NCBI GenBank assembly: GCA_964575515.1
Contig: CAZNQS010000001.1
Span: 5,403 to 69,402, forward strand
From: Candidatus Woesearchaeota archaeon
GTDB lineage: Archaea > Nanobdellota > Nanobdellia > Pacearchaeales > GW2011-AR1
Length of the DNA stretch: 64,000 nt
Direction: 5' to 3'
In this document: piece after piece, positions 24,617 through 56,281 of the stretch
Numbering within the stretch: position 1 is the stretch's first letter
Layout: each line of letters begins with the position of its first letter
Program-made: the position numbers and the translations under genes
The notes under the pieces: model-generated
Told to the model about the DNA's origin: nothing
Databases searched by the model: none
What the model saw: only the letters and a program-made list of their open reading frames with translations

Positions 24617-25549
24617 ATGTATATTGAGAGAAGGAAAGCAAGGGGTAAGATAAGATACTATTTAGGACATTCATTCAGAGAAGGTGGAAAAGTACATAAA
24701 TTAAGGAAATTTCTTGGCTCTGATTTAGATGAGAAGACTCTTAGTGAGCGGGCAGAAAAGGCCAAAGCTTTAATCTTAGAAGAAATTCAGAAATATCAAA
24801 TTATTCGCGACCCTTTAAAGGTTGAACTTTCTGAAGAAGAGATTGTATATTTACGCAATCTTGAGAAGAAAATTCCGCTTAAAGTAGATCATCTCTCAGA
24901 AAAAGATTGGCAAAGATTTACCGAGTTATTTACCTATAGCACAAACGCGATTGAAGGAAGCGAACTTAACAGTAAAGAAGTTAAAGAAATTCTTGAAGAA
25001 GATAAATGGCCTGATAAATCTAAGGAAGACATTGCTGAAGCCTATGGAGTAAATGATGCAATTGAATTTATTAGGAAAATTAGAGAGCATATCTCTTTAG
25101 AGTTTATACTTGAATTACATAAACTCGTTTTTAAGAATTCCAAAAATTTTGCCGGACAATTTAGAAAACCTGGAGAGGAGGTCGTTGTTATGGGAGGAGG
25201 AAAGATTGTTCATCAAGGTGCACCTCAATCGAGAATTGTTAGACTTTTGAAAGAGCTTATAGAGTGGTATGAGAAAAATAAAAGTAAATATCCGGGTATT
25301 GTATTAGCGGCAGTTGTACATAATCAGTTTGAGAATATTCACCCTTTTAGAGACGGAAATGGAAGAGTGGGAAGATTATTGTTAAATAACATTCTCCTGA
25401 AACATGATTTGCCACCTGTGAATATTGATTTGAAGAATAGGCAGGAGTATTATAAGGCATTACAGTCGTATGATAAGGAATATAACCTGCGACCGATGAT
25501 TGAGCTTATTCTTAAAGAATATAAGACTCTTAAAAGAATTTTGAAGTAA
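24617..25549 (+). CDS. Fic/DOC family protein
   Basis: Canonical Fic motif HPFRDGNGRVGR. Confidence 0.85.
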   Translation: MYIERRKARGKIRYYLGHSFREGGKVHKLRKFLGSDLDEKTLSERAEKAKALILEEIQKYQIIRDPLKVELSEEEIVYLRNLEKKIPLKVDHLSEKDWQRFTELFTYSTNAIEGSELNSKEVKEILEEDKWPDKSKEDIAEAYGVNDAIEFIRKIREHISLEFILELHKLVFKNSKNFAGQFRKPGEEVVVMGGGKIVHQGAPQSRIVRLLKELIEWYEKNKSKYPGIVLAAVVHNQFENIHPFRDGNGRVGRLLLNNILLKHDLPPVNIDLKNRQEYYKALQSYDKEYNLRPMIELILKEYKTLKRILK

Positions 25550-25745
25550 GATAGTGTAGACAAAAAATGTAGACAATTTATATTTTGTAGACATGCTCCT
25601 GCCGAGCAAGAATACAAGTTGTCCAATCTAATGGGACTCTCTCTTTTTTTATTATGTTTGCTGGAGTAATTAAAAAGACGGATTTTTAATAATTCTAGTT
25701 GTTGTTTAAAATAATTTAAAAAAAGAAAAATTAATATCCAATTAT

Positions 25746-26000
25746 TTAATCATTACAACTATTAGGGATTACTTCATCTGGTACTAGTCCTGCAAGATGG
25801 GCTTGAACATCAGCACCAATACCGTCTGTGGTAGAAGCCAGTCCTGAAATAAGTCCACCAAAAGCAGATCCGCCTTGCGCATATCCTGAAACATCTTCCC
25901 CAAGACAAGCCTGATTATTGGGTTGAGCTGCAAATACTAAAGTTACTGAAGTTGCAAGAAGCGCTATAGCCATAAAAGCCATCAAAATTACTTTTTTCAT
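25746..26000 (-). CDS. small secreted protein (84 aa, signal peptide, 2 Cys)
   Basis: MKKVILMAFMAIALLATSVTLVFA. A GGAGGT Shine-Dalgarno lies at 26005-26010. The start was chosen at 26000 rather than 26063. Confidence 0.5.
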   Translation of the reverse strand: MKKVILMAFMAIALLATSVTLVFAAQPNNQACLGEDVSGYAQGGSAFGGLISGLASTTDGIGADVQAHLAGLVPDEVIPNSCND

Positions 26001-26134
26001 TTTTACCTCCGCATTATTTTGAATAAATACCTTCTTTATATACATTATTGTGTTATAAAACAATATAAAATCTGTATGCCCACTAAACTAGACAATTTGT
26101 AAGGATGCTCCTGCCGTAAGTGGAGCAGAGAAGC

Positions 26135-27133
26135 CTAGAGAAAAATATTCCAATAAGTCTCTGTCATCTCCTCGGCCATAAAATCAATAAGTTTTTGATA
26201 ATGTTCTTTATTTGCTTTTGAGAGATATGAAGGATCAGCGGTTCTTAATGCTTGTAAATATTTATCTCGTTTCTTCTTATGCACAATTACCGGAGGATAA
26301 TTGTTATTAATAAGGACAGCATCAAAGAGTATTCTTCCTGTTCTTCCATTACCATCCATGAAAGGATGTATTTTCTCGAATTTATGATGGAAAATAGTTG
26401 CTATAACTAATGGATGGAGATATTTCTTGCTTTGCTCATACCACTTAAATAAGATGTCCATATCAGTTTTTACATAGGGTGCAGGAGTTGCTTTAAAGTT
26501 TGCTCTTATAACTCTAACATCAGATGTCCTGTAACCCATTCTATCATCAATATTTTCCATGAGACTCTTGTGAATATTAATAATTAAATCATGTGAAAGC
26601 TCCTGTTTCTTCTCAAGCAAAAAAAGAAAAACTTTTTCTGTATTCTGCAAATCATAAATTTCTCTTAGGGTTCTATTTTTTGGAGTAAGCCCTTCGTCAA
26701 GAAGTTTCCTTGCTTCATCTAATTTGATAGTATTTCCCTCAATAGAAGCAGTATTATAGGCAAATTCTATAATAAAGTTTTTGTAAATTTCCTGTTTTGT
26801 GGGTGCAGGATTCTTTCGAAACTCGTTATTATAGTGGATTTTACATGCTTCTATTTCGGGAGTCTTGTCACCTAACCATTCATCTTTTTTTAGTTTGCTT
26901 TCCTTGGCTTTTTGAAGATACCGATTTGATTCCAGAAAATTATGGATTGTTTTATATGCTTTTCTTATTTTTTCAGAATGTTGAGGTAACTTTTCTAGAC
27001 TTTGTTTTATCTCCTCAAGAGAGCTTCCTAAGTATGCGATATCTTTTGCGATAACTTTTCCGTTCTTTCTTTCTGACGCTCTAAGGTAATAATATATTTT
27101 ATTTCCTACAGGCTTTTTGTAAATGTATACCAT
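26135..27133 (-). CDS. Fic/DOC family protein
   Basis: Fic motif HPFMDGNGRTGR. The N-terminal region is paralogous to the 24617 ORF. Confidence 0.85.
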   Translation of the reverse strand: MVYIYKKPVGNKIYYYLRASERKNGKVIAKDIAYLGSSLEEIKQSLEKLPQHSEKIRKAYKTIHNFLESNRYLQKAKESKLKKDEWLGDKTPEIEACKIHYNNEFRKNPAPTKQEIYKNFIIEFAYNTASIEGNTIKLDEARKLLDEGLTPKNRTLREIYDLQNTEKVFLFLLEKKQELSHDLIINIHKSLMENIDDRMGYRTSDVRVIRANFKATPAPYVKTDMDILFKWYEQSKKYLHPLVIATIFHHKFEKIHPFMDGNGRTGRILFDAVLINNNYPPVIVHKKKRDKYLQALRTADPSYLSKANKEHYQKLIDFMAEEMTETYWNIFL

Positions 27134-27204
27134 AGTTCTTTGAAGAAAAAAGAGTATTTAAATCTTTACCCTCTACTTTATGATTATCATATGTAGCGGG
27201 TATA

Positions 27205-27421
27205 TGCTCCTGCCGGGATTTGAACCCGGGTTTCCGCCGTTCTCCTCTGCCTTAAGAAAATTAAGGCATTGGTATACAAAGATTTGCATCTCTGTCTCCC
27301 CAACTCTTGCGAGCTGCAGATAATAAAATGCCTGTCCTAAGGAGGACTGAGATTATTATCTCAACGACTTAAATCTCGGCAATCGAGAGGGCGGTGTCCT
27401 TGGCCTCTAGACTACAAGAGC
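27205..27421 (-). tRNA. tRNA-Glu(CUC) with a ~143-nt intron in or next to the anticodon loop
   Basis: Hand fold: acceptor GCTCTTG/CAGGAGC, D arm GTCT-AGAGGCCAA-GGAC, anticodon stem CCGCC..GGCGG with loop CTCTCGA, and T arm CCGGG-TTCAAAT-CCCGG. The exact splice sites were not resolved. Confidence 0.72.
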
Positions 27422-27612
27422 TCATTAAAGAAACTAAAATTGAGGTATTTAAAAGACTATTGATTTTTCAGTTTAAAAGGTAAATAATAAATACAATAAT
27501 CAAAAGATCTAAAATTACATAGAAAGCAAATATATCATAGAACATATCTTCCATAGACATCTTAAGTTTACATAAAATTAACGCTCCGTTGACATAAGAA
27601 CTTATATGAAAA

Positions 27613-27852
27613 TCACTTCTTAAAAACCTTATATCCCTTTCTTACTTTTTGAGAAACTATAATTCCTATTTCATCCCCTTTTTTCGCGCTAGTAACATTC
27701 TTACGATTTATCTGCATACTCTTTACAATTTCCTCAAAATCCACATTCCCTCCTTTAATCTCTATCTTTTCACCTATTTTAAGTGGTTTAGAAAGTTTTA
27801 TTGCTGCTGCTTTTACATGGTCAAAATAGTTCGTAACTTCACCTATTTCCAT
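27613..27852 (-). CDS. small beta-barrel protein resembling translation-factor domain II (tentative)
   Basis: 79 aa with KIGEKIEIKG..AKKGDEIGI. Confidence 0.35.
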   Translation of the reverse strand: MEIGEVTNYFDHVKAAAIKLSKPLKIGEKIEIKGGNVDFEEIVKSMQINRKNVTSAKKGDEIGIIVSQKVRKGYKVFKK

Positions 27853-27890
27853 ATCATAATAGAAGATTAAAGGGTATATAAGTTTTATTG

Positions 27891-28457
27891 TTAGAGTAAA
27901 AGAAATATCAAAATTCCCAATGAATGCAAAACTAAACTGAAAATTACTATTAGTATTGATTTTATCTCGGGCAATCCTGCCAATATTGTAATGGCTATTT
28001 CATCAGGAATCGGAGAAGCCATTATAAAACCTACAAAAATATACATAATATAAGTTTTCACTCTATGACTTAAACTTCTCGAAAAAACTTCTCTTATCTC
28101 CTTAAATCTTTTTGTATTTTCTAATTTTATTAATTCGTCTGCAAATGAGATCTTTATTAATTTGTATAATAATAAATTGCCTGTTGCAGAGCCAAGACCG
28201 CCCAAAATTGTAGCAACTAATAGGCTGTCTACATTTGCCGAAACCAAAAATCCTATTGCAAATGGAGTGGTAAAGCCAAATGAAAAAAAGAATCCTGCGA
28301 TAAACACGCCAAGATAGCTCAACTCATCAAGACTTAGAATTATATTATTAATAAATGGATTTTTAAAAAGGAGATATGCAATTATTATAGACACTGCCAA
28401 GAATATTAATTTAGGATATTTTATTTTGAACAGTCTTTTCATCTCTTTCTCCCGCAT
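27891..28457 (-). CDS. integral membrane protein
   Basis: 188 aa with about 5 TM segments. Confidence 0.5.
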   Translation of the reverse strand: MREKEMKRLFKIKYPKLIFLAVSIIIAYLLFKNPFINNIILSLDELSYLGVFIAGFFFSFGFTTPFAIGFLVSANVDSLLVATILGGLGSATGNLLLYKLIKISFADELIKLENTKRFKEIREVFSRSLSHRVKTYIMYIFVGFIMASPIPDEIAITILAGLPEIKSILIVIFSLVLHSLGILIFLLL

Positions 28458-28459
28458 TA

Positions 28460-28532
28460 TAGCCCCACCAGGATTCGAACCTGGGTCTACGGGACCAGAA
28501 CCCGCAATGCTTGACCACTACACCATAGGGCT
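28460..28532 (-). tRNA. tRNA-Gln(CUG)
   Basis: Hand fold: acceptor AGCCCTA/TGGGGCT, D arm GTGT-AGTGGTCAA-GCAT, anticodon arm GCGGG-TTCTGGT-CCCGT, and T arm CCAGG-TTCGAAT-CCTGG. Confidence 0.85.
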
Positions 28533-29423
28533 GTCTATAATCTTTAATCTTTCTATGTGCTTTAAATTAGAAAAATTTATCTCTTTTAAATACTTGCTTA
28601 TATCACTTTTTCTGGAGATAAAAAATTGCTTATTCACGATTATTTTAGAAGGGAAGAATCCAAGTTTTATGAAAGCATTTCTAGTATCTATTAATAGCTT
28701 CATATTATAATTAGTAAAACTAAGCCTTATTAATTTCGGATCTTTATTAGACATACGAAAAACTGATCCATCAGTGTCTATTAATCCCCTTACGCAGGCT
28801 TTTAAGAAAGATTCATTTTCCCATACCCAATAAGGTATTGTAATTTGATTTTTTATTTTGTCTCCGGCATTTAATCCCATATCTATAAAAAATTCCACTA
28901 ATTCTTTACTATAAATATCGAGAAATCTTTCATTTGGTCTCAATATTTCTTTAGCTTTCAGATTAAAGATATTTTCACATAAATTCTTTAAATAATTTAT
29001 ATGGTAATCTTTATCTTTTTCCAAATCGCCCGCTATTCTTATGTGATAAACTCCTATCTTCTTCCCCTTTTTATAATAATTTATATTTCCATCCCCTAAA
29101 ATCGCCCCTATAAATTCAGCTAGTTTTTCATTTAGGGCAGGTTTAATTAATTTTATTTTAGATCCATTGGAAATTTTTCCCCCTTTAGATTTTCCCCAAT
29201 TATCTTCTAATATTTCTTCTATATAATTATCGAAATTAACTTTTGCAATTAAACATAATTCTCTGTATTTAATTTCTGGCAAGAGCCTCATTTCATTTCT
29301 TAATTCGAAATATAGATATTTTTCATTTAATTTTAATTTTTTAGCTAATTCTTTCCAAGTTAAATTAAATTTAGCCAATAGAATCAATTCTTTTTGCTTA
29401 CCCGCTTTTAATTTTATTCTCAT
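28518..29423 (-). CDS. double-motif LAGLIDADG homing endonuclease-like protein
   Basis: FIGAILGDGNI and VRGLIDTDGSV. The last 15 nt overlap the 5' end of tRNA-Gln. Confidence 0.85.
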   Translation of the reverse strand: MRIKLKAGKQKELILLAKFNLTWKELAKKLKLNEKYLYFELRNEMRLLPEIKYRELCLIAKVNFDNYIEEILEDNWGKSKGGKISNGSKIKLIKPALNEKLAEFIGAILGDGNINYYKKGKKIGVYHIRIAGDLEKDKDYHINYLKNLCENIFNLKAKEILRPNERFLDIYSKELVEFFIDMGLNAGDKIKNQITIPYWVWENESFLKACVRGLIDTDGSVFRMSNKDPKLIRLSFTNYNMKLLIDTRNAFIKLGFFPSKIIVNKQFFISRKSDISKYLKEINFSNLKHIERLKIIDSPMV

Positions 29424-29462
29424 TCAATTTGATAATCAATTTAAATATATATAATTTACTAT

Positions 29463-29484
29463 TTGACCACTAGACTATGGGGCT
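29463..29484 (-). pseudogene. orphan tRNA 5' fragment (acceptor strand plus D-arm start)
   Basis: AGCCCCATAGTCTAGTGGTCAA is 19/22 identical to nt 1-22 of tRNA-Gln at 28532. It is perfectly complementary to that tRNA's 3' acceptor strand TGGGGCT. Confidence 0.6.
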
Positions 29485-29564
29485 ATAAAATCTCCTAATC
29501 TTTAAATCTTTTAAACCTTCCCAAAATAAGATATATTTAAATTCACATCTTGCCTATTTAAAAA

Positions 29565-30020
29565 ATGATAAGAAGAACTCATCTCGCCATAGGCACGGCA
29601 CTCGCCCTATATTTCTTGCCCTTCATAAAACACAAGCTATTTTTTATCCCAATTGTAATCATTTCCAGTCTTTTGCCAGACATAGATACAATGCATTCCA
29701 GTATAGGAAGGAAAAAAATCTTCCGCCCTGTTCAAGTATTTCTGACTCATAGAGGGCCGATGCACAGTTACACAATATGCGCTATAATCTCGCTAATATT
29801 GGCATTCTTCTTCCCAACCTATGCCCTGCCATTCTTCTTGGGATATTCCTTTCATTTATTCGCAGATAGTTTTACAATTAATGGCATAAGGCCATTCTGG
29901 CCATTAAAATTTAATACTAAGGGAGTTGTAAAAACAGGCAGCATGCTTGATAAAACAATATTCTTCGTATTCCTCATTATAGATATATTTTTATTCCTCG
30001 CAATATTCCTAACTAAATGA
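29565..30020 (+). CDS. membrane-bound metal-dependent hydrolase, YdjM/DUF457-like
   Basis: RRTHLAIG.., LLPDIDT.. and HRGPMHS within a polytopic membrane protein. Confidence 0.62.
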   Translation: MIRRTHLAIGTALALYFLPFIKHKLFFIPIVIISSLLPDIDTMHSSIGRKKIFRPVQVFLTHRGPMHSYTICAIISLILAFFFPTYALPFFLGYSFHLFADSFTINGIRPFWPLKFNTKGVVKTGSMLDKTIFFVFLIIDIFLFLAIFLTK

Positions 30021-30069
30021 TAAGAAAGATTTTTATAGAAGCATTATAATATATAAATGAGGTAAAAAG

Positions 30070-30408
30070 ATGGTATTTGGTTGGTTAATCATCGGAATAT
30101 TAATGGTGTTCTTATTTATTGCTATATTCAAAACTCAGGACTTGATGTTTATCTTCTCGCTAATGAAAAAATATGGCTTTATCTTCGTAGCTATAGCCCT
30201 GATATTATTTGTTTCATTTTCATTTTATAATATCTATAAGAGATACGATTTAGATTTAACAAACTATAAGGGCATAACGCACGCAGGAAAAGTGTATTAT
30301 ACGTGGTTCATCAGCATTTTCAAAAATGTGGGAAAAATAACAGGCTATGCAGTCAATCAAGATTGGGTATTAAATTCAACACTAACTAACACATCAAAAT
30401 CAAAATGA
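30070..30408 (+). CDS. small membrane protein
   Basis: Two TM segments. The stop overlaps the next start as ATGA. Confidence 0.4.
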   Translation: MVFGWLIIGILMVFLFIAIFKTQDLMFIFSLMKKYGFIFVAIALILFVSFSFYNIYKRYDLDLTNYKGITHAGKVYYTWFISIFKNVGKITGYAVNQDWVLNSTLTNTSKSK

Positions 30409-30623
30409 AGATTAGCCTAATTATTCTAAAATTATTATTCCTCGGCGCCTTATTTATAGTCAGCAACCACGAATTATATCTAAAAGAAGCCGGTGACAGA
30501 AATACATTTATCAATATGTATTCTTCATGGCTGGACACGCTTTTTACGCAAGGCCTTGAAGTCACAACTTACGTAGTCAAGTTTGAATGGCTTCCTATTA
30601 ATGAAACCTATACCGACAAATAG
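30405..30623 (+). CDS. small membrane/secreted protein
   Basis: N-terminal hydrophobic segment, translationally coupled to the upstream ORF. Confidence 0.35.
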   Translation: MKISLIILKLLFLGALFIVSNHELYLKEAGDRNTFINMYSSWLDTLFTQGLEVTTYVVKFEWLPINETYTDK

Positions 30624-30659
30624 TTATATTTTTATACGATTTTATGTCTCTCATTATAA

Positions 30660-30759
30660 GCCTCTATAGCTCAGCCGGTTAGAGCGCAGCATTGGTAAGT
30701 TGCAAAAAACTGAATATCCAAATATGCTGAGGTCCCGAGTTCGATTCTCGGTAGAGGCT
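30660..30759 (+). tRNA. tRNA-Thr(GGU) with a 26-nt canonical (37/38) intron at 30698-30723
   Basis: Acceptor GCCTCTA/TAGAGGC, D arm GCTC-AGCCGGTTA-GAGC, anticodon stem CAGCA/TGCTG with loop TTGGTA|intron|A, and T arm CCGAG-TTCGATT-CTCGG. The TTGG/CCAA pairing fits a BHB central helix. Confidence 0.85.
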
Positions 30760-30817
30760 TTTTCAATCAACTAAACCAATCAGTTAACTATAAAAAGACA
30801 TTTTTTATTAGTCTAAT

Positions 30818-31285
30818 ATGGAGCTCAAGAATCTAAAGAAAGAATACGCTGAATTGGAAAAAAAATACAAATTGCCAAAATTTGAGAATTTGAATGCTGA
30901 CTTTGAAATAGACAAATTAGACAAAGAAAGCGACAGCATATTAAGAGCAATCAGAAAAATTATGATGGAGAAAATAGTCAATTCAATGAGCTTCTTGGAA
31001 ATGCTGATTAATCCTGTCAATGCCCCAAGAATGTATCTACCATATATCAGAACAATGAGCGCTGAAGACAGAAAAATAATTGATGACATATACTCCTCGC
31101 TCGCTGATTTAAGTTTGCTCTCTCTGGAATTAGAAATCGACACGGCAGAAAGCAACGAAGCAAGCTTGATTAAAGATGTTTTTAAAAAATGGCAGGAGCT
31201 AAGACAGGGATTCAGGCAGATAATCGCCAGCATAAAAGCCCCAAAGAATTTTGTCAATAGAAGAGAGAAAACTTATTTCGGATAA
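30818..31285 (+). CDS. hypothetical protein
   Basis: 155 aa with normal charged composition. The overlapping minus-strand ORF is a low-complexity shadow. Confidence 0.5.
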   Translation: MELKNLKKEYAELEKKYKLPKFENLNADFEIDKLDKESDSILRAIRKIMMEKIVNSMSFLEMLINPVNAPRMYLPYIRTMSAEDRKIIDDIYSSLADLSLLSLELEIDTAESNEASLIKDVFKKWQELRQGFRQIIASIKAPKNFVNRREKTYFG

Positions 31286-55378: not shown

Positions 55379-55405
55379 GCCCGGATGGGACAATGGTACT
55401 CCGCG
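55379..55405 (+). other. tRNA 5' piece (acceptor strand, 3-bp D arm, nt 26)
   Basis: GCCCGGA-TG-GGA-CAATGGTAC-TCC-G. It is 7/7 complementary to TCCGGGC at 56274-56280. A TATA-like ttaaaag lies at -29 to -23. Confidence 0.6.
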
Positions 55406-55444
55406 TTATAGAAAAATATAAATACAATTCCTATATAACTTTAT

Positions 55445-56125
55445 ATGGATCTATCTAAAAGAAATAGAAAGGTCGCCATATCTCGTTGGAAAAAACATCT
55501 AATATATAATCAGAGTAGAATATATTCAGGTAAAGACGTGGAAGTTATGAAGGCCGCGCTATGTGGTTTTCTTGCAGGAGACGGAAGCGTACAAGTAAGA
55601 AAAGGAAAGTCTTTTTCACATTATCAACTAGATTTTTTCCCGGATGATATCCGTATGCTAAAAAAGTATCTAAGTTTAATGAAGAGAGTGTATAAAACAA
55701 TACCTTCTATTACTAGAAGAGACAATGTCTTTGCAGCCAGGTTATTTCAGAAATTTATAGTATTGGATTTGCTTAAAATATCTAAGTTTGGTGTATATAA
55801 TTGGAATATCCCCAATTGGATTATGAAAAATGATCTAAACAAAAAAGCCTGGCTTCGAGCATTTTTTTCTGCAGAAGGTTATGTAAATCAAAAATATATT
55901 AAAACGCAAAGCGTTAATCTTATAGGGATAAGTAAAGTGTCTCATTTATTAGATAGTATGGATATATCTCATCGTGTTTATTACTATAAACCAAAAAACA
56001 CAAATCACTCAAAAGTAGCTTTATTATTTATAAGCCCATTTAAGTCTAGAATAAAATTCTATAAAGAAATTGGTTTTTGGCATTTAAAAAAAGAAAGAAA
56101 ACTAAGAGAAACGTTAGGTTTATAA
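55445..56125 (+). CDS. double-motif LAGLIDADG homing endonuclease-like protein
   Basis: LCGFLAGDGSV and LRAFFSAEGYV. It has its own TATA-like aaaatataaata about 25 nt upstream. Confidence 0.8.
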   Translation: MDLSKRNRKVAISRWKKHLIYNQSRIYSGKDVEVMKAALCGFLAGDGSVQVRKGKSFSHYQLDFFPDDIRMLKKYLSLMKRVYKTIPSITRRDNVFAARLFQKFIVLDLLKISKFGVYNWNIPNWIMKNDLNKKAWLRAFFSAEGYVNQKYIKTQSVNLIGISKVSHLLDSMDISHRVYYYKPKNTNHSKVALLFISPFKSRIKFYKEIGFWHLKKERKLRETLGL

Positions 56126-56149: not shown

Positions 56150-56231
56150 GCTGATGTTGAGCAGTGGTAGCTCGCTTGCTTGGAGAGCAAGTTTCCTTAC
56201 AGATATGCAGGTTCGATTCCTGCCATCAGCG
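56150..56231 (+). tRNA. class II tRNA, probably tRNA-Ser(GGA)
   Basis: Acceptor GCTGATG/CATCAGC with G73, 3-bp D stem GAG/CTC, anticodon arm CTTGC-TTGGAGA-GCAAG, a 15-nt variable region (poorly paired), and T arm GCAGG-TTCGATT-CCTGC. Confidence 0.62.
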
Positions 56232-56235
56232 TATA

Positions 56236-56281
56236 ACTCGCTTTCCGCAAGGATTTCCAGGTTCGATTCCTGGTCCGGGCG
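56236..56281 (+). other. tRNA 3' piece (D-stem 3' strand, variable hairpin, T arm, acceptor strand) lacking an anticodon arm
   Basis: ACTC-G-C-TTTCC-GCAA-GGATTT-CCAGG-TTCGATT-CCTGG-TCCGGGC-G. It aligns to the preceding tRNA with exactly the anticodon arm missing. Confidence 0.6.

Follow-up and report, generated by a model that had tools for sequence, protein, structure and literature searches.

Why does a gene for a LAGLIDADG endonuclease lie between an orphan copy of the 5′ end of a transfer RNA (tRNA) gene and a complete copy of the same gene? The question is raised by a locus in a stretch of 64,000 nucleotides (nt) from Candidatus Woesearchaeota archaeon (assembly GCA_964575515.1, contig CAZNQS010000001.1, positions 5,403 to 69,402), hereafter called the window, whose G+C content is 34% and whose tRNAs carry introns. 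On its minus strand, between 28460 and 29515, a TATA-like box, a 22-nt tRNA fragment, a second promoter, a LAGLIDADG open reading frame (ORF) and a complete tRNA-Gln(CUG) gene follow one another. The reading favored here, to which we assign a probability of roughly 0.6, is that this 1-kb block is a homing-endonuclease cassette inserted in a tRNA-Gln gene, and that the tRNA was restored by a duplicated 5′ part carried with the cassette. As the repeat can be read, the insertion is equivalent to placing a promoter of B recognition element (BRE) and TATA box, the LAGLIDADG ORF and new tRNA nt 1-22 after position 21/22 in the D loop, so that the old 5′ end would be stranded upstream and a complete tRNA rebuilt downstream.

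Organization of the tRNA-Gln Locus

29508-29515, minus strand: P1, TATA-like tttaaaag at -31 to -24 from the fragment; putative original promoter of tRNA-Gln
29478-29484, minus strand: acceptor half of the fragment, AGCCCCA; presumably left over from the host tRNA-Gln, whose 5′ end was displaced; the same strand as in the empty-site alleles
29463-29477, minus strand: D-arm half of the fragment, TAGTCTAGTGGTCAA; conserved box directly upstream of the ORF promoter
29447-29460, minus strand: P2, BRE-like AGTAAA (29460-29455) with TATA TTATATAT (29454-29447); predicted promoter of the ORF
28518-29423, minus strand: endonuclease ORF of 301 amino acids (Pfam LAGLIDADG_3), the only long ORF of this strand at the locus
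28460-28532, minus strand: complete resident tRNA-Gln(CUG) (ARAGORN and Rfam, 58.7 bits)

The coordinates and features given for this locus by the initial annotation (the tRNA, the ORF, their overlap, the fragment with its pairing, and the TATA boxes) all held on re-examination. The fragment (29484-29463) reads AGCCCCATAGTCTAGTGGTCAA and is a direct repeat of nt 1-22 of the resident tRNA (28532-28511), 952 nt apart from it and identical at 19/22 positions, the mismatches being at positions 6, 9 and 12. Its AGCCCCA can form 7/7 Watson-Crick pairs with TGGGGCT, the 3′ strand of the tRNA acceptor, whereas AGCCCTA of the resident tRNA leaves one G-U pair. The ORF runs into the tRNA gene: its 3′ end, AGC CCT ATG GTG TAG, is nt 1-15 of the tRNA (28532-28518), and its stop codon is T13-A14-G15. 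The TATA of P2 is centered about 27 nt ahead of the ATG of the ORF; P2 is probably a promoter, and the mRNA of the ORF probably leaderless. TATA-like runs are found in the 3′ end of the ORF at varying positions in the window and in two related loci, L001 and L002 (L numbers denote loci of relatives throughout), and no conserved internal promoter for the tRNA is evident in them.

Empty Sites in Related Lineages

The initial annotation had proposed that related genomes be searched for empty sites, and such sites were found. When metagenomes were scanned for the 3′ two-thirds of the tRNA, four contigs were found, of which two are occupied (L088, similar to L001, and L089, similar to L002) and two are empty (L087 and L090). 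The empty ones carry an intact tRNA-Gln(CUG) with neither the ORF nor the fragment, and tblastn of the endonuclease against them detected no trace of it (best match, E = 1). Both retain the upstream neighbor of the window locus, YdjM, and a copy of a gene for a protein of 79 amino acids; L090 additionally aligns to the window over the downstream 79-amino-acid gene and the exons of tRNA-Glu. Among the five lineages (the window, L001, L002, L087 and L090), YdjM is 59-66% and the 79-amino-acid protein 72-83% identical, and comparison of the endonuclease between the three occupied ones (window, L001, L002) gives 72-75%. There is, in other words, a presence/absence polymorphism at one site among comparably related lineages.

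The empty alleles also tell what the fragment is. In both of them, TTTAAAA precedes nt 1 of the tRNA with the same spacing as it does the fragment of the window (about -31 to -25), and because its promoter geometry equals that of the empty genes, the fragment stands at the former 5′ end of the tRNA. Moreover, both alleles begin with AGCCCCA, as the fragment does and the resident tRNA does not. The earlier idea that the fragment is left from a prior tRNA gene, whose 5′ end it marks, is borne out by this shared geometry and sequence. The resident tRNA itself appears, over only a few informative sites, as a mosaic, equal to the empty allele in nt 23-73 and to L002 in nt 1-22, which is compatible with crossovers within the tRNA. 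Since the acceptor half of the fragment is intact in the window and lost in L001 and L002 at comparable divergence of the ORF, the comparison suggests that the window insertion is younger or was renewed. Compared with the empty alleles, the resident tRNAs of the window clade have T6 and one T fewer in the D loop; the longer D loop is also present in other occupied loci, for which reason a difference of this kind was rejected as a rule of ‘immunity’.

A Module Shared by DPANN Archaea

Homologs of the ORF fall into 467 protein clusters, mostly of about 300 amino acids and 55-75% identical, and homologs of the window proteins are labelled Pacearchaeota, Nanoarchaeota or Woesearchaeota, which places the host among the DPANN archaea. 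In a scan of one genome per species, relatives were encoded in at least 264 species-level DPANN genomes; the best 80 of these 264 genome loci were inspected, plus loci from exact-protein look-ups. The same plan is present at tRNA-Gln or tRNA-Glu genes in almost every one of the approximately 80 DPANN loci examined, and a complete tRNA stands downstream of the ORF in every locus. Of the linked tRNAs, 58 are for Gln and 15 for Glu; resolved by anticodon, Gln(CUG) accounts for 36 loci, Gln(UUG) for 21, Glu(CUC) for 8 and Glu(UUC) for 6. Simple patterns served to assign the junctions and also the anticodons, as ARAGORN miscalls many of these intron-rich genes. In 57 of the 73 recognizable junctions the stop codon of the ORF is the tRNA's own TAG, either at nt 13-15 (37 junctions) or at nt 8-10 (20 junctions), and among the others, most either run into the tRNA or stop no more than 23 nt from it. 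S-P-x-V or A-P forms the C terminus of nearly all of the 25 homologs aligned, and therefore the ORF ends inside the 5′ end of the tRNA. In a neighbor-joining tree, the ORFs cluster by the identity of the linked tRNA. Flanking genes differ between distant loci; thus, what is conserved is the module and not its neighborhood. That endonuclease genes ride on tRNA genes, as had been supposed for this genome, holds across the family. No account of such an endonuclease-tRNA arrangement was found in the literature searched, and it is apparently undescribed, at tRNA genes for Gln and Glu and, as described below, for Ser.

A Gln-linked subfamily has shorter ORFs of approximately 200-250 amino acids, which lack an N-terminal domain present in the window protein. 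Several of its loci have a host remnant of 10-14 nt (e.g., AGCCCCGTAGTGTA) 70-240 nt upstream, and many have a conserved CACTGGACA-like motif about 10 nt ahead of the TATA. Thus, a target-like box adjacent to the promoter is a general feature and is separable from the acceptor remnant.

Several loci show further peculiarities. One genome (JAHJSH01) has two cassettes, L025 and L067, at tRNA-Gln and tRNA-Glu, and in L049 an unoccupied tRNA-Gln gene lies directly upstream of an occupied tRNA-Glu gene. Rearranged tRNA pieces adjoin some cassettes: upstream of the ORF in L027, the D-arm box is bordered by a reverse-complemented tRNA 3′ end (acceptor strand with half of the T arm), and the tRNA of L002 has a piece of T arm in inverted orientation, ATTCGAACCTGG, just after it. 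Many ORF-linked resident tRNA-Gln genes (L008-L085) have T opposite G in the 5′ acceptor strand, giving G-U at 6:67 or 4:69, for instance AGCCCTG with CGGGGCT. Such pairs could result from AT mutation pressure, or could be the trace of a mosaic with a 5′ part from the donor and a 3′ part from the host.

Two Halves of the Fragment with Different Fates

Upstream of the ORF, long-ORF members almost always have ...TAGTnTAGyGGTCAA, with a distance of 32-40 nt from its end to the ATG; in relatives, an invariant A at +3, then GTAA and an AT-rich run come next. A match of at least 11/13 to the D-arm motif is found in 34 of 60 long-ORF loci, compared with 3 of 1200 shuffles and none of 53 distal windows of the same loci, which served as controls for the selection bias that comes with placing the box by its best consensus match. 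Within the window, when up to 2 mismatches are allowed, there are 4 occurrences of the motif TAGTNTAGTGGTCAA where 0.19 are expected, a number reached in 0 of 100 shuffles; the fragment and the tRNA account for two of the four occurrences.

The acceptor half (nt 1-7) behaves differently and is bimodal across loci. It is intact, with 7/7 pairing possible, in the window, L008, L011, L013, L019, L042, L045, the Glu-type L046, L054 and L062. In about half of the loci (L001, L002, L010, L012, L014, L015, L020, L025, L027 and more) it has decayed to 2-5 chance pairs. The D-arm half scores 10-13/13 throughout, including the loci with a decayed acceptor half. Between the window and L013, whose ORFs are 60% identical with saturated synonymous sites, the fragment and the next 8 nt are nevertheless identical at 30/30 positions. 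This match, together with the persistence of the D-arm half where the acceptor half has decayed, indicates that the former is under selection of its own and the latter is not. We propose that the D-arm half is the retained left half of the endonuclease target, which may now serve as an operator, as a homology arm, or as both.

One more D-arm-like box, TAGTTTAGTGGGCAT, is located at 26076-26090 on the minus strand, with 2 mismatches to the motif and with TATA-like ATTTTATATTG after it. Downstream of the box, at about 25999, begins a small ORF that resembles a secreted protein, and no endonuclease gene is nearby. The box could be all that is left of a lost cassette, or it could match by chance.

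A Second Cassette in a tRNA-Ser Gene

55379-55405, plus strand: 5′ remnant, GCCCGGATGGGACAATGGTACTCCGCG, corresponding to nt 1-28 of a displaced tRNA-Ser of the L095 type
approximately 55414-55424, plus strand: TATA of the second cassette, after the 5′ remnant
55445-56125, plus strand: double-motif LAGLIDADG ORF of 226 amino acids (Pfam)
56150-56231, plus strand: complete resident tRNA-Ser(GGA) of the L097 type (ARAGORN, Rfam and comparison with L097)
56236-56281, plus strand: 3′ remnant from the same displaced tRNA-Ser, likewise of the L095 type

The locus at 55.4 kb of the window had been regarded as a case of the same theme, and the parallel is real: it is a cassette at tRNA-Ser flanked by remnants of a displaced tRNA. 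The 3′ remnant comprises the 3′ strand of the anticodon stem, the variable arm TTTCCGCAAGGATTT, the T arm, the acceptor strand TCCGGGC and G73. The two remnants pair 7/7, and together they make a class II tRNA without nt 29-38, the anticodon included. The remnants were first worked out by eye and afterwards against L095, whose resident tRNA-Ser both of them match and which shares the thymidylate-kinase neighbor of the window; ARAGORN had accepted almost any joining of the halves. The family of the 226-amino-acid ORF has 137 clusters, most of them of this length. In L095 and L097-L102 the layout is the same, namely a D-arm-like piece of tRNA-Ser (...GGTACTGCG), a TATA, the ORF, a spacer of about 25 nt and tRNA-Ser(GGA). 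A 3′ tRNA-Ser remnant also follows the resident tRNA in L101 and L102, and since remnants flank both the window cassette and the L101/L102 cassettes, a unit of ORF and tRNA has displaced a tRNA-Ser at least twice. In L098 and L099 the resident tRNA-Ser has an intron, the position of which agrees with the fragment boundary to within about 2 nt.

Endonuclease or Domesticated Regulator

The 301-amino-acid ORF scores 25.8 bits with Pfam LAGLIDADG_3 (cut-off, 22.5) and has two motifs in one chain, ...ILGDGNI... and ...GLIDTDGS.... Across 25 homologs, G110-D111-G112 and D216-T217-D218-G219 are invariant, D111 and D218 being the catalytic aspartates. In the AlphaFold model (mean predicted local distance difference test score of 88.6), a monomeric double LAGLIDADG domain extends approximately from residue 95 to residue 300, with the order alpha-beta-beta-alpha-beta-beta-alpha of the double-domain fold. 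Foldseek gave a probability of 1.00 to I-Tsp061I, I-DmoI, PI-PfuI and the TliVMA intein endonuclease; the closest structural matches are the archaeal intron enzymes I-Tsp061I and I-DmoI and intein endonucleases. Residues 1-75 (approximately) form a separate N-terminal helical domain, for which no credible family was found in Pfam or NCBIfam. The ratio of nonsynonymous to synonymous substitution rates (dN/dS) is 0.11-0.27, with dS above 1, at which synonymous sites are saturated; the ORF is under purifying selection. Decayed copies also exist, one with an in-frame stop at codon 8 (L024) and one truncated (L030). Among viral contigs the ORF has no close relatives but only four distant matches of 25-43% identity, on which ground a viral origin was rejected.

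A protein so well kept invites another explanation, which we consider unlikely, although it survives better than the other alternatives. In the manner of WhiA, the protein would be a domesticated regulator, that is, an immobile host transcription factor that acts on the D-arm box and controls itself and the co-transcribed tRNA-Gln or tRNA-Glu; the fragment would then be a plain operator derived from an ancient tRNA duplication. Conservation equal to that of neighboring host proteins would suit such a factor, as would the lack of close viral relatives, the additional helical domain, the fixed distance of the D-arm box from BRE/TATA and the correspondence between ORF clades and tRNA identity, and a WhiA complex is among the structural matches (rank 43). 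WhiA-type proteins, however, have lost the catalytic aspartates, and both are invariant here. An immobile factor also accords poorly with occupancy that varies among equally related lineages in one synteny, with interrupted copies, with the displaced-tRNA remnants around the Ser cassettes, and with a window fragment that retains the acceptor half and the old promoter lost in L001 and L002. Besides, regulation by the protein is compatible with the homing cassette, since an active endonuclease can repress its own promoter too.

D-Loop Introns and the Boundary of the Fragment

In 32 of 53 aligned linked tRNA-Gln genes, the D loop has an insertion after GGTCAA or GGCCAA, at a position accurate to about 2 nt because of alignment ambiguity; a canonical anticodon-loop intron is present in 13. 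The tRNA-Gln of the window and its nearest relatives are without a D-loop intron. When ten relatives with a D-loop intron were co-folded, the two sides of the small intron formed a relaxed bulge-helix-bulge of -10.7 to -17.2 kcal/mol, and the predicted 5′ cut falls right after GGTCAA, which is the end point of the upstream fragment (worked by hand for L028).

This coincidence would be expected if the region between the two tRNA copies were a giant bulge-helix-bulge intron of about 950 nt that encodes the endonuclease, with the fragment as exon 1 to be spliced to tRNA nt 23-73. Archaeal introns with LAGLIDADG genes are known from ribosomal RNA (rRNA), as in the case of I-DmoI, and the perfect pairing of the fragment with the 3′ acceptor strand is used in the minimum-energy structure of the co-fold. 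Nevertheless, in the window no bulge-helix-bulge forms between the fragment side and the downstream junction, and in the ten relatives the fragment side forms the central helix and the D stem only, without an intron-side helix, at energies of -5.4 to -10.0 kcal/mol, against the range given above for the resident side. No splicing motif thus resulted from co-folding the fragment, be it with the tRNA region or with the 3′ half of each relative's small intron, by which both a giant intron and trans-splicing were rejected, and the pairing flanks of a split tRNA gene are absent at the fragment. Nor is the fragment a compatible upstream exon, because in the window C12 would face C23 in the D stem, and because the acceptor half is degenerate in about half of the relatives, where 2-5 of 7 pairs are possible, and is incompatible with the resident 3′ strand in L016. 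With a complete tRNA downstream in every locus in addition, we regard a giant intron as very improbable. A group I intron was rejected, since the Rfam intron models had no match in the window at the gathering threshold, nor in 25000-31000 at E up to 1. Group I introns of archaea have been reported only in rRNA genes (PMC6125680).

Position 21/22 is, from the sequences compared, best explained as the point of both insertion and targeting by the endonuclease, with the small introns interrupting the target. A D-loop intron would protect the target because it splits the presumed site. The initial annotation had linked endonuclease genes to tRNA genes, which stands, and had offered an attachment (att) duplication as one origin of the fragment, which does not. 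It had also suggested that the fragment may be the relic of a cleavage-sensitive allele and the resident tRNA a resistant one. A direct repeat of part of a tRNA gene does flank foreign DNA here, as with archaeal viruses and plasmids in tRNA genes, but an integrase-type element is effectively excluded by the gene content between the repeats, where only a promoter and the LAGLIDADG ORF are found with no integrase or other element gene (the block adds nothing else than the 5′ part of the tRNA); the recurrence of the same 1-kb module in hundreds of genomes and the lack of close relatives on viral contigs also speak against it.

Proposed Homing without Splicing

As a homing cassette, the block would propagate in the following way. 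The endonuclease would cut unoccupied tRNA-Gln genes in the D-arm region, and double-strand-break repair would copy the cassette with the flanking tRNA sequences as homology, which amounts to intron-like homing without splicing. The tRNA would be co-transcribed with the ORF from P2, and possibly also from the old P1. The upstream sequence would be harmless because RNase P would free the 5′ end of the tRNA; this cleavage would also strip the stop codon of the ORF, which the ORF takes from invariant tRNA nucleotides, from processed transcripts. Once the cassette is inserted, the acceptor half of the fragment would be useless and decay. The D-arm half, being the left half of the target, would be kept beside the promoter, most likely as a site for autoregulation by the endonuclease, and it may also act as the left homology arm. 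D-loop introns at the same position in linked tRNAs would split the target and thereby protect it.

Several points weigh against this reading. The empty sites number only two, and no consistent difference in tRNA sequence between occupied and empty genes is seen across the family. The rebuilt tRNA of the window resembles an intact target and has no D-loop intron, so that how self-cleavage is avoided is unexplained. An ORF conserved like host proteins, in clades that track tRNA identity, fits long vertical inheritance as well. The cleavage activity and the target site are presumed from sequence alone, and the promoters, the leaderless start and the release by RNase P are likewise read from it. 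Because 22 nt are duplicated, the insertion point could, as far as the sequence tells, lie anywhere from nt 1 to nt 22.

A more far-reaching version can be held only tentatively and seems rather doubtful to us. In it, the cassettes are active, gene-drive-like elements that cut the D arms of tRNA genes, and the unusual, non-canonical D-loop introns, orphan pieces and mosaic tRNAs of DPANN archaea are products of the conflict. If this were true, the introns at position 21/22 would have arisen or spread by splitting the endonuclease target. An archaeal intron and a free-standing endonuclease would then be homing collaboratively, and the retained half-target would be the operator of the endonuclease's own promoter. 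It would also give direct, testable support to the old proposal that disruption of tRNA genes in archaea is a defense against mobile elements.

To our knowledge, homing endonuclease genes have been thought to persist in essential genes only within self-splicing introns or inteins. The cassettes apparently persist by another route, carrying a spare 5′ end of the tRNA and leaving the clean-up to ordinary tRNA 5′ processing. The nuclease family is tied to one position of tRNA that is also a hotspot for non-canonical introns, and therefore the cause of the frequent interruption and splitting of archaeal tRNA genes is open to experiment. The ORFs may be a source of new compact meganucleases specific for tRNA genes. 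Annotation pipelines label such ORFs as hypothetical or generic LAGLIDADG proteins and overlook the fragments.

Neighboring Features

A gene for a membrane protein of 188 amino acids (27891-28457, minus strand) begins 2 nt past the 3′ end of tRNA-Gln and has no match in the syntenic contigs L087, L090, L001 and L002. Thus, the DNA just 3′ of tRNA-Gln varies among relatives, too. Further downstream, tRNA-Glu(CUC) (27205-27421, minus strand) has an intron of 144 nt at the canonical site. Most relatives (L004, L008, L037-L039, L046, L049 and others) have a tRNA-Glu intron of about 80-130 nt at the same place, and these introns share similar blocks, e.g., ..GTCGTTGAGA..CTCAGTCC..GGACAGGCA..GGAGAACGGCG. 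The similarity across relatives suggests that the intron contains a structured or functional RNA.

Comparison with Known Systems

None of the systems compared here combines a tRNA host, a duplicated 5′ part, the fusion of ORF and tRNA, and a conserved target-like box, and each of them resembles the cassette in some respect. I-DmoI, I-Tsp061I and I-PorI, encoded in bulge-helix-bulge introns of archaeal rRNA genes, share its monomeric double-motif fold and are its best structural or sequence matches; they likewise have an archaeal host, a home in a gene for a stable RNA and an insertion at an intron position. In contrast to them, the window ORF is not in a spliceable intron, its host gene is a tRNA gene whose function is restored by a duplicated 5′ part, and its protein has an extra N-terminal domain and only about 20% identity. 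SegB of phage T4 is a free-standing homing endonuclease of the GIY-YIG type encoded in a tRNA gene cluster (PMC13096335; PMC2988022). Both its home and its target are tRNA genes, as is proposed here; however, it belongs to a different enzyme family and a phage, and it has neither a fusion to tRNA nor a duplicated tRNA fragment. The split tRNA genes of Nanoarchaeum equitans, another DPANN archaeon, also include free-lying 5′ pieces with their own TATA. The window piece differs from these in that it has no complementary leader or bulge-helix-bulge, is followed by a complete tRNA and decays in relatives.

Three further systems resemble the cassette in its supposed way of life. Zeng, Bonocora and Shub (2009) reportedly described F-CphI, an endonuclease encoded beside psbA of a cyanophage, with an ORF-less intron at the endonuclease target, as collaborative homing. 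Here too, the endonuclease gene stands beside its presumed target, and an ORF-less intron occupies the presumed target position in 32 of 53 relatives. The introns are, however, archaeal ones of the bulge-helix-bulge type and not group I, the window tRNA is intronless, the target is a presumed one, and F-CphI has no stranded 5′ fragment. According to a report ascribed to Edgell and colleagues (2004), I-TevI represses itself through an operator that resembles its homing site, so that, as here, the promoter of the endonuclease gene has a target-like sequence within it or next to it. The D-arm box is proposed to work on this model, although there the promoter is an archaeal BRE/TATA promoter and binding and repression are proposed from its sequence. 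Finally, in the mitochondrial atp6 of Allomyces, an organellar endonuclease gene is said to have brought a new gene end with it (Paquin, Laforest and Lang, 1994). There, as at the tRNA-Gln locus, the endonuclease gene travels with a substitute for the part of the target that it separates, and the displaced original stays behind as an orphan fragment; in Allomyces the substitutes are 3′ ends of protein genes fused in frame, whereas the substitute in the cassette is a tRNA 5′ end, which RNase P could free from any sequence before it.

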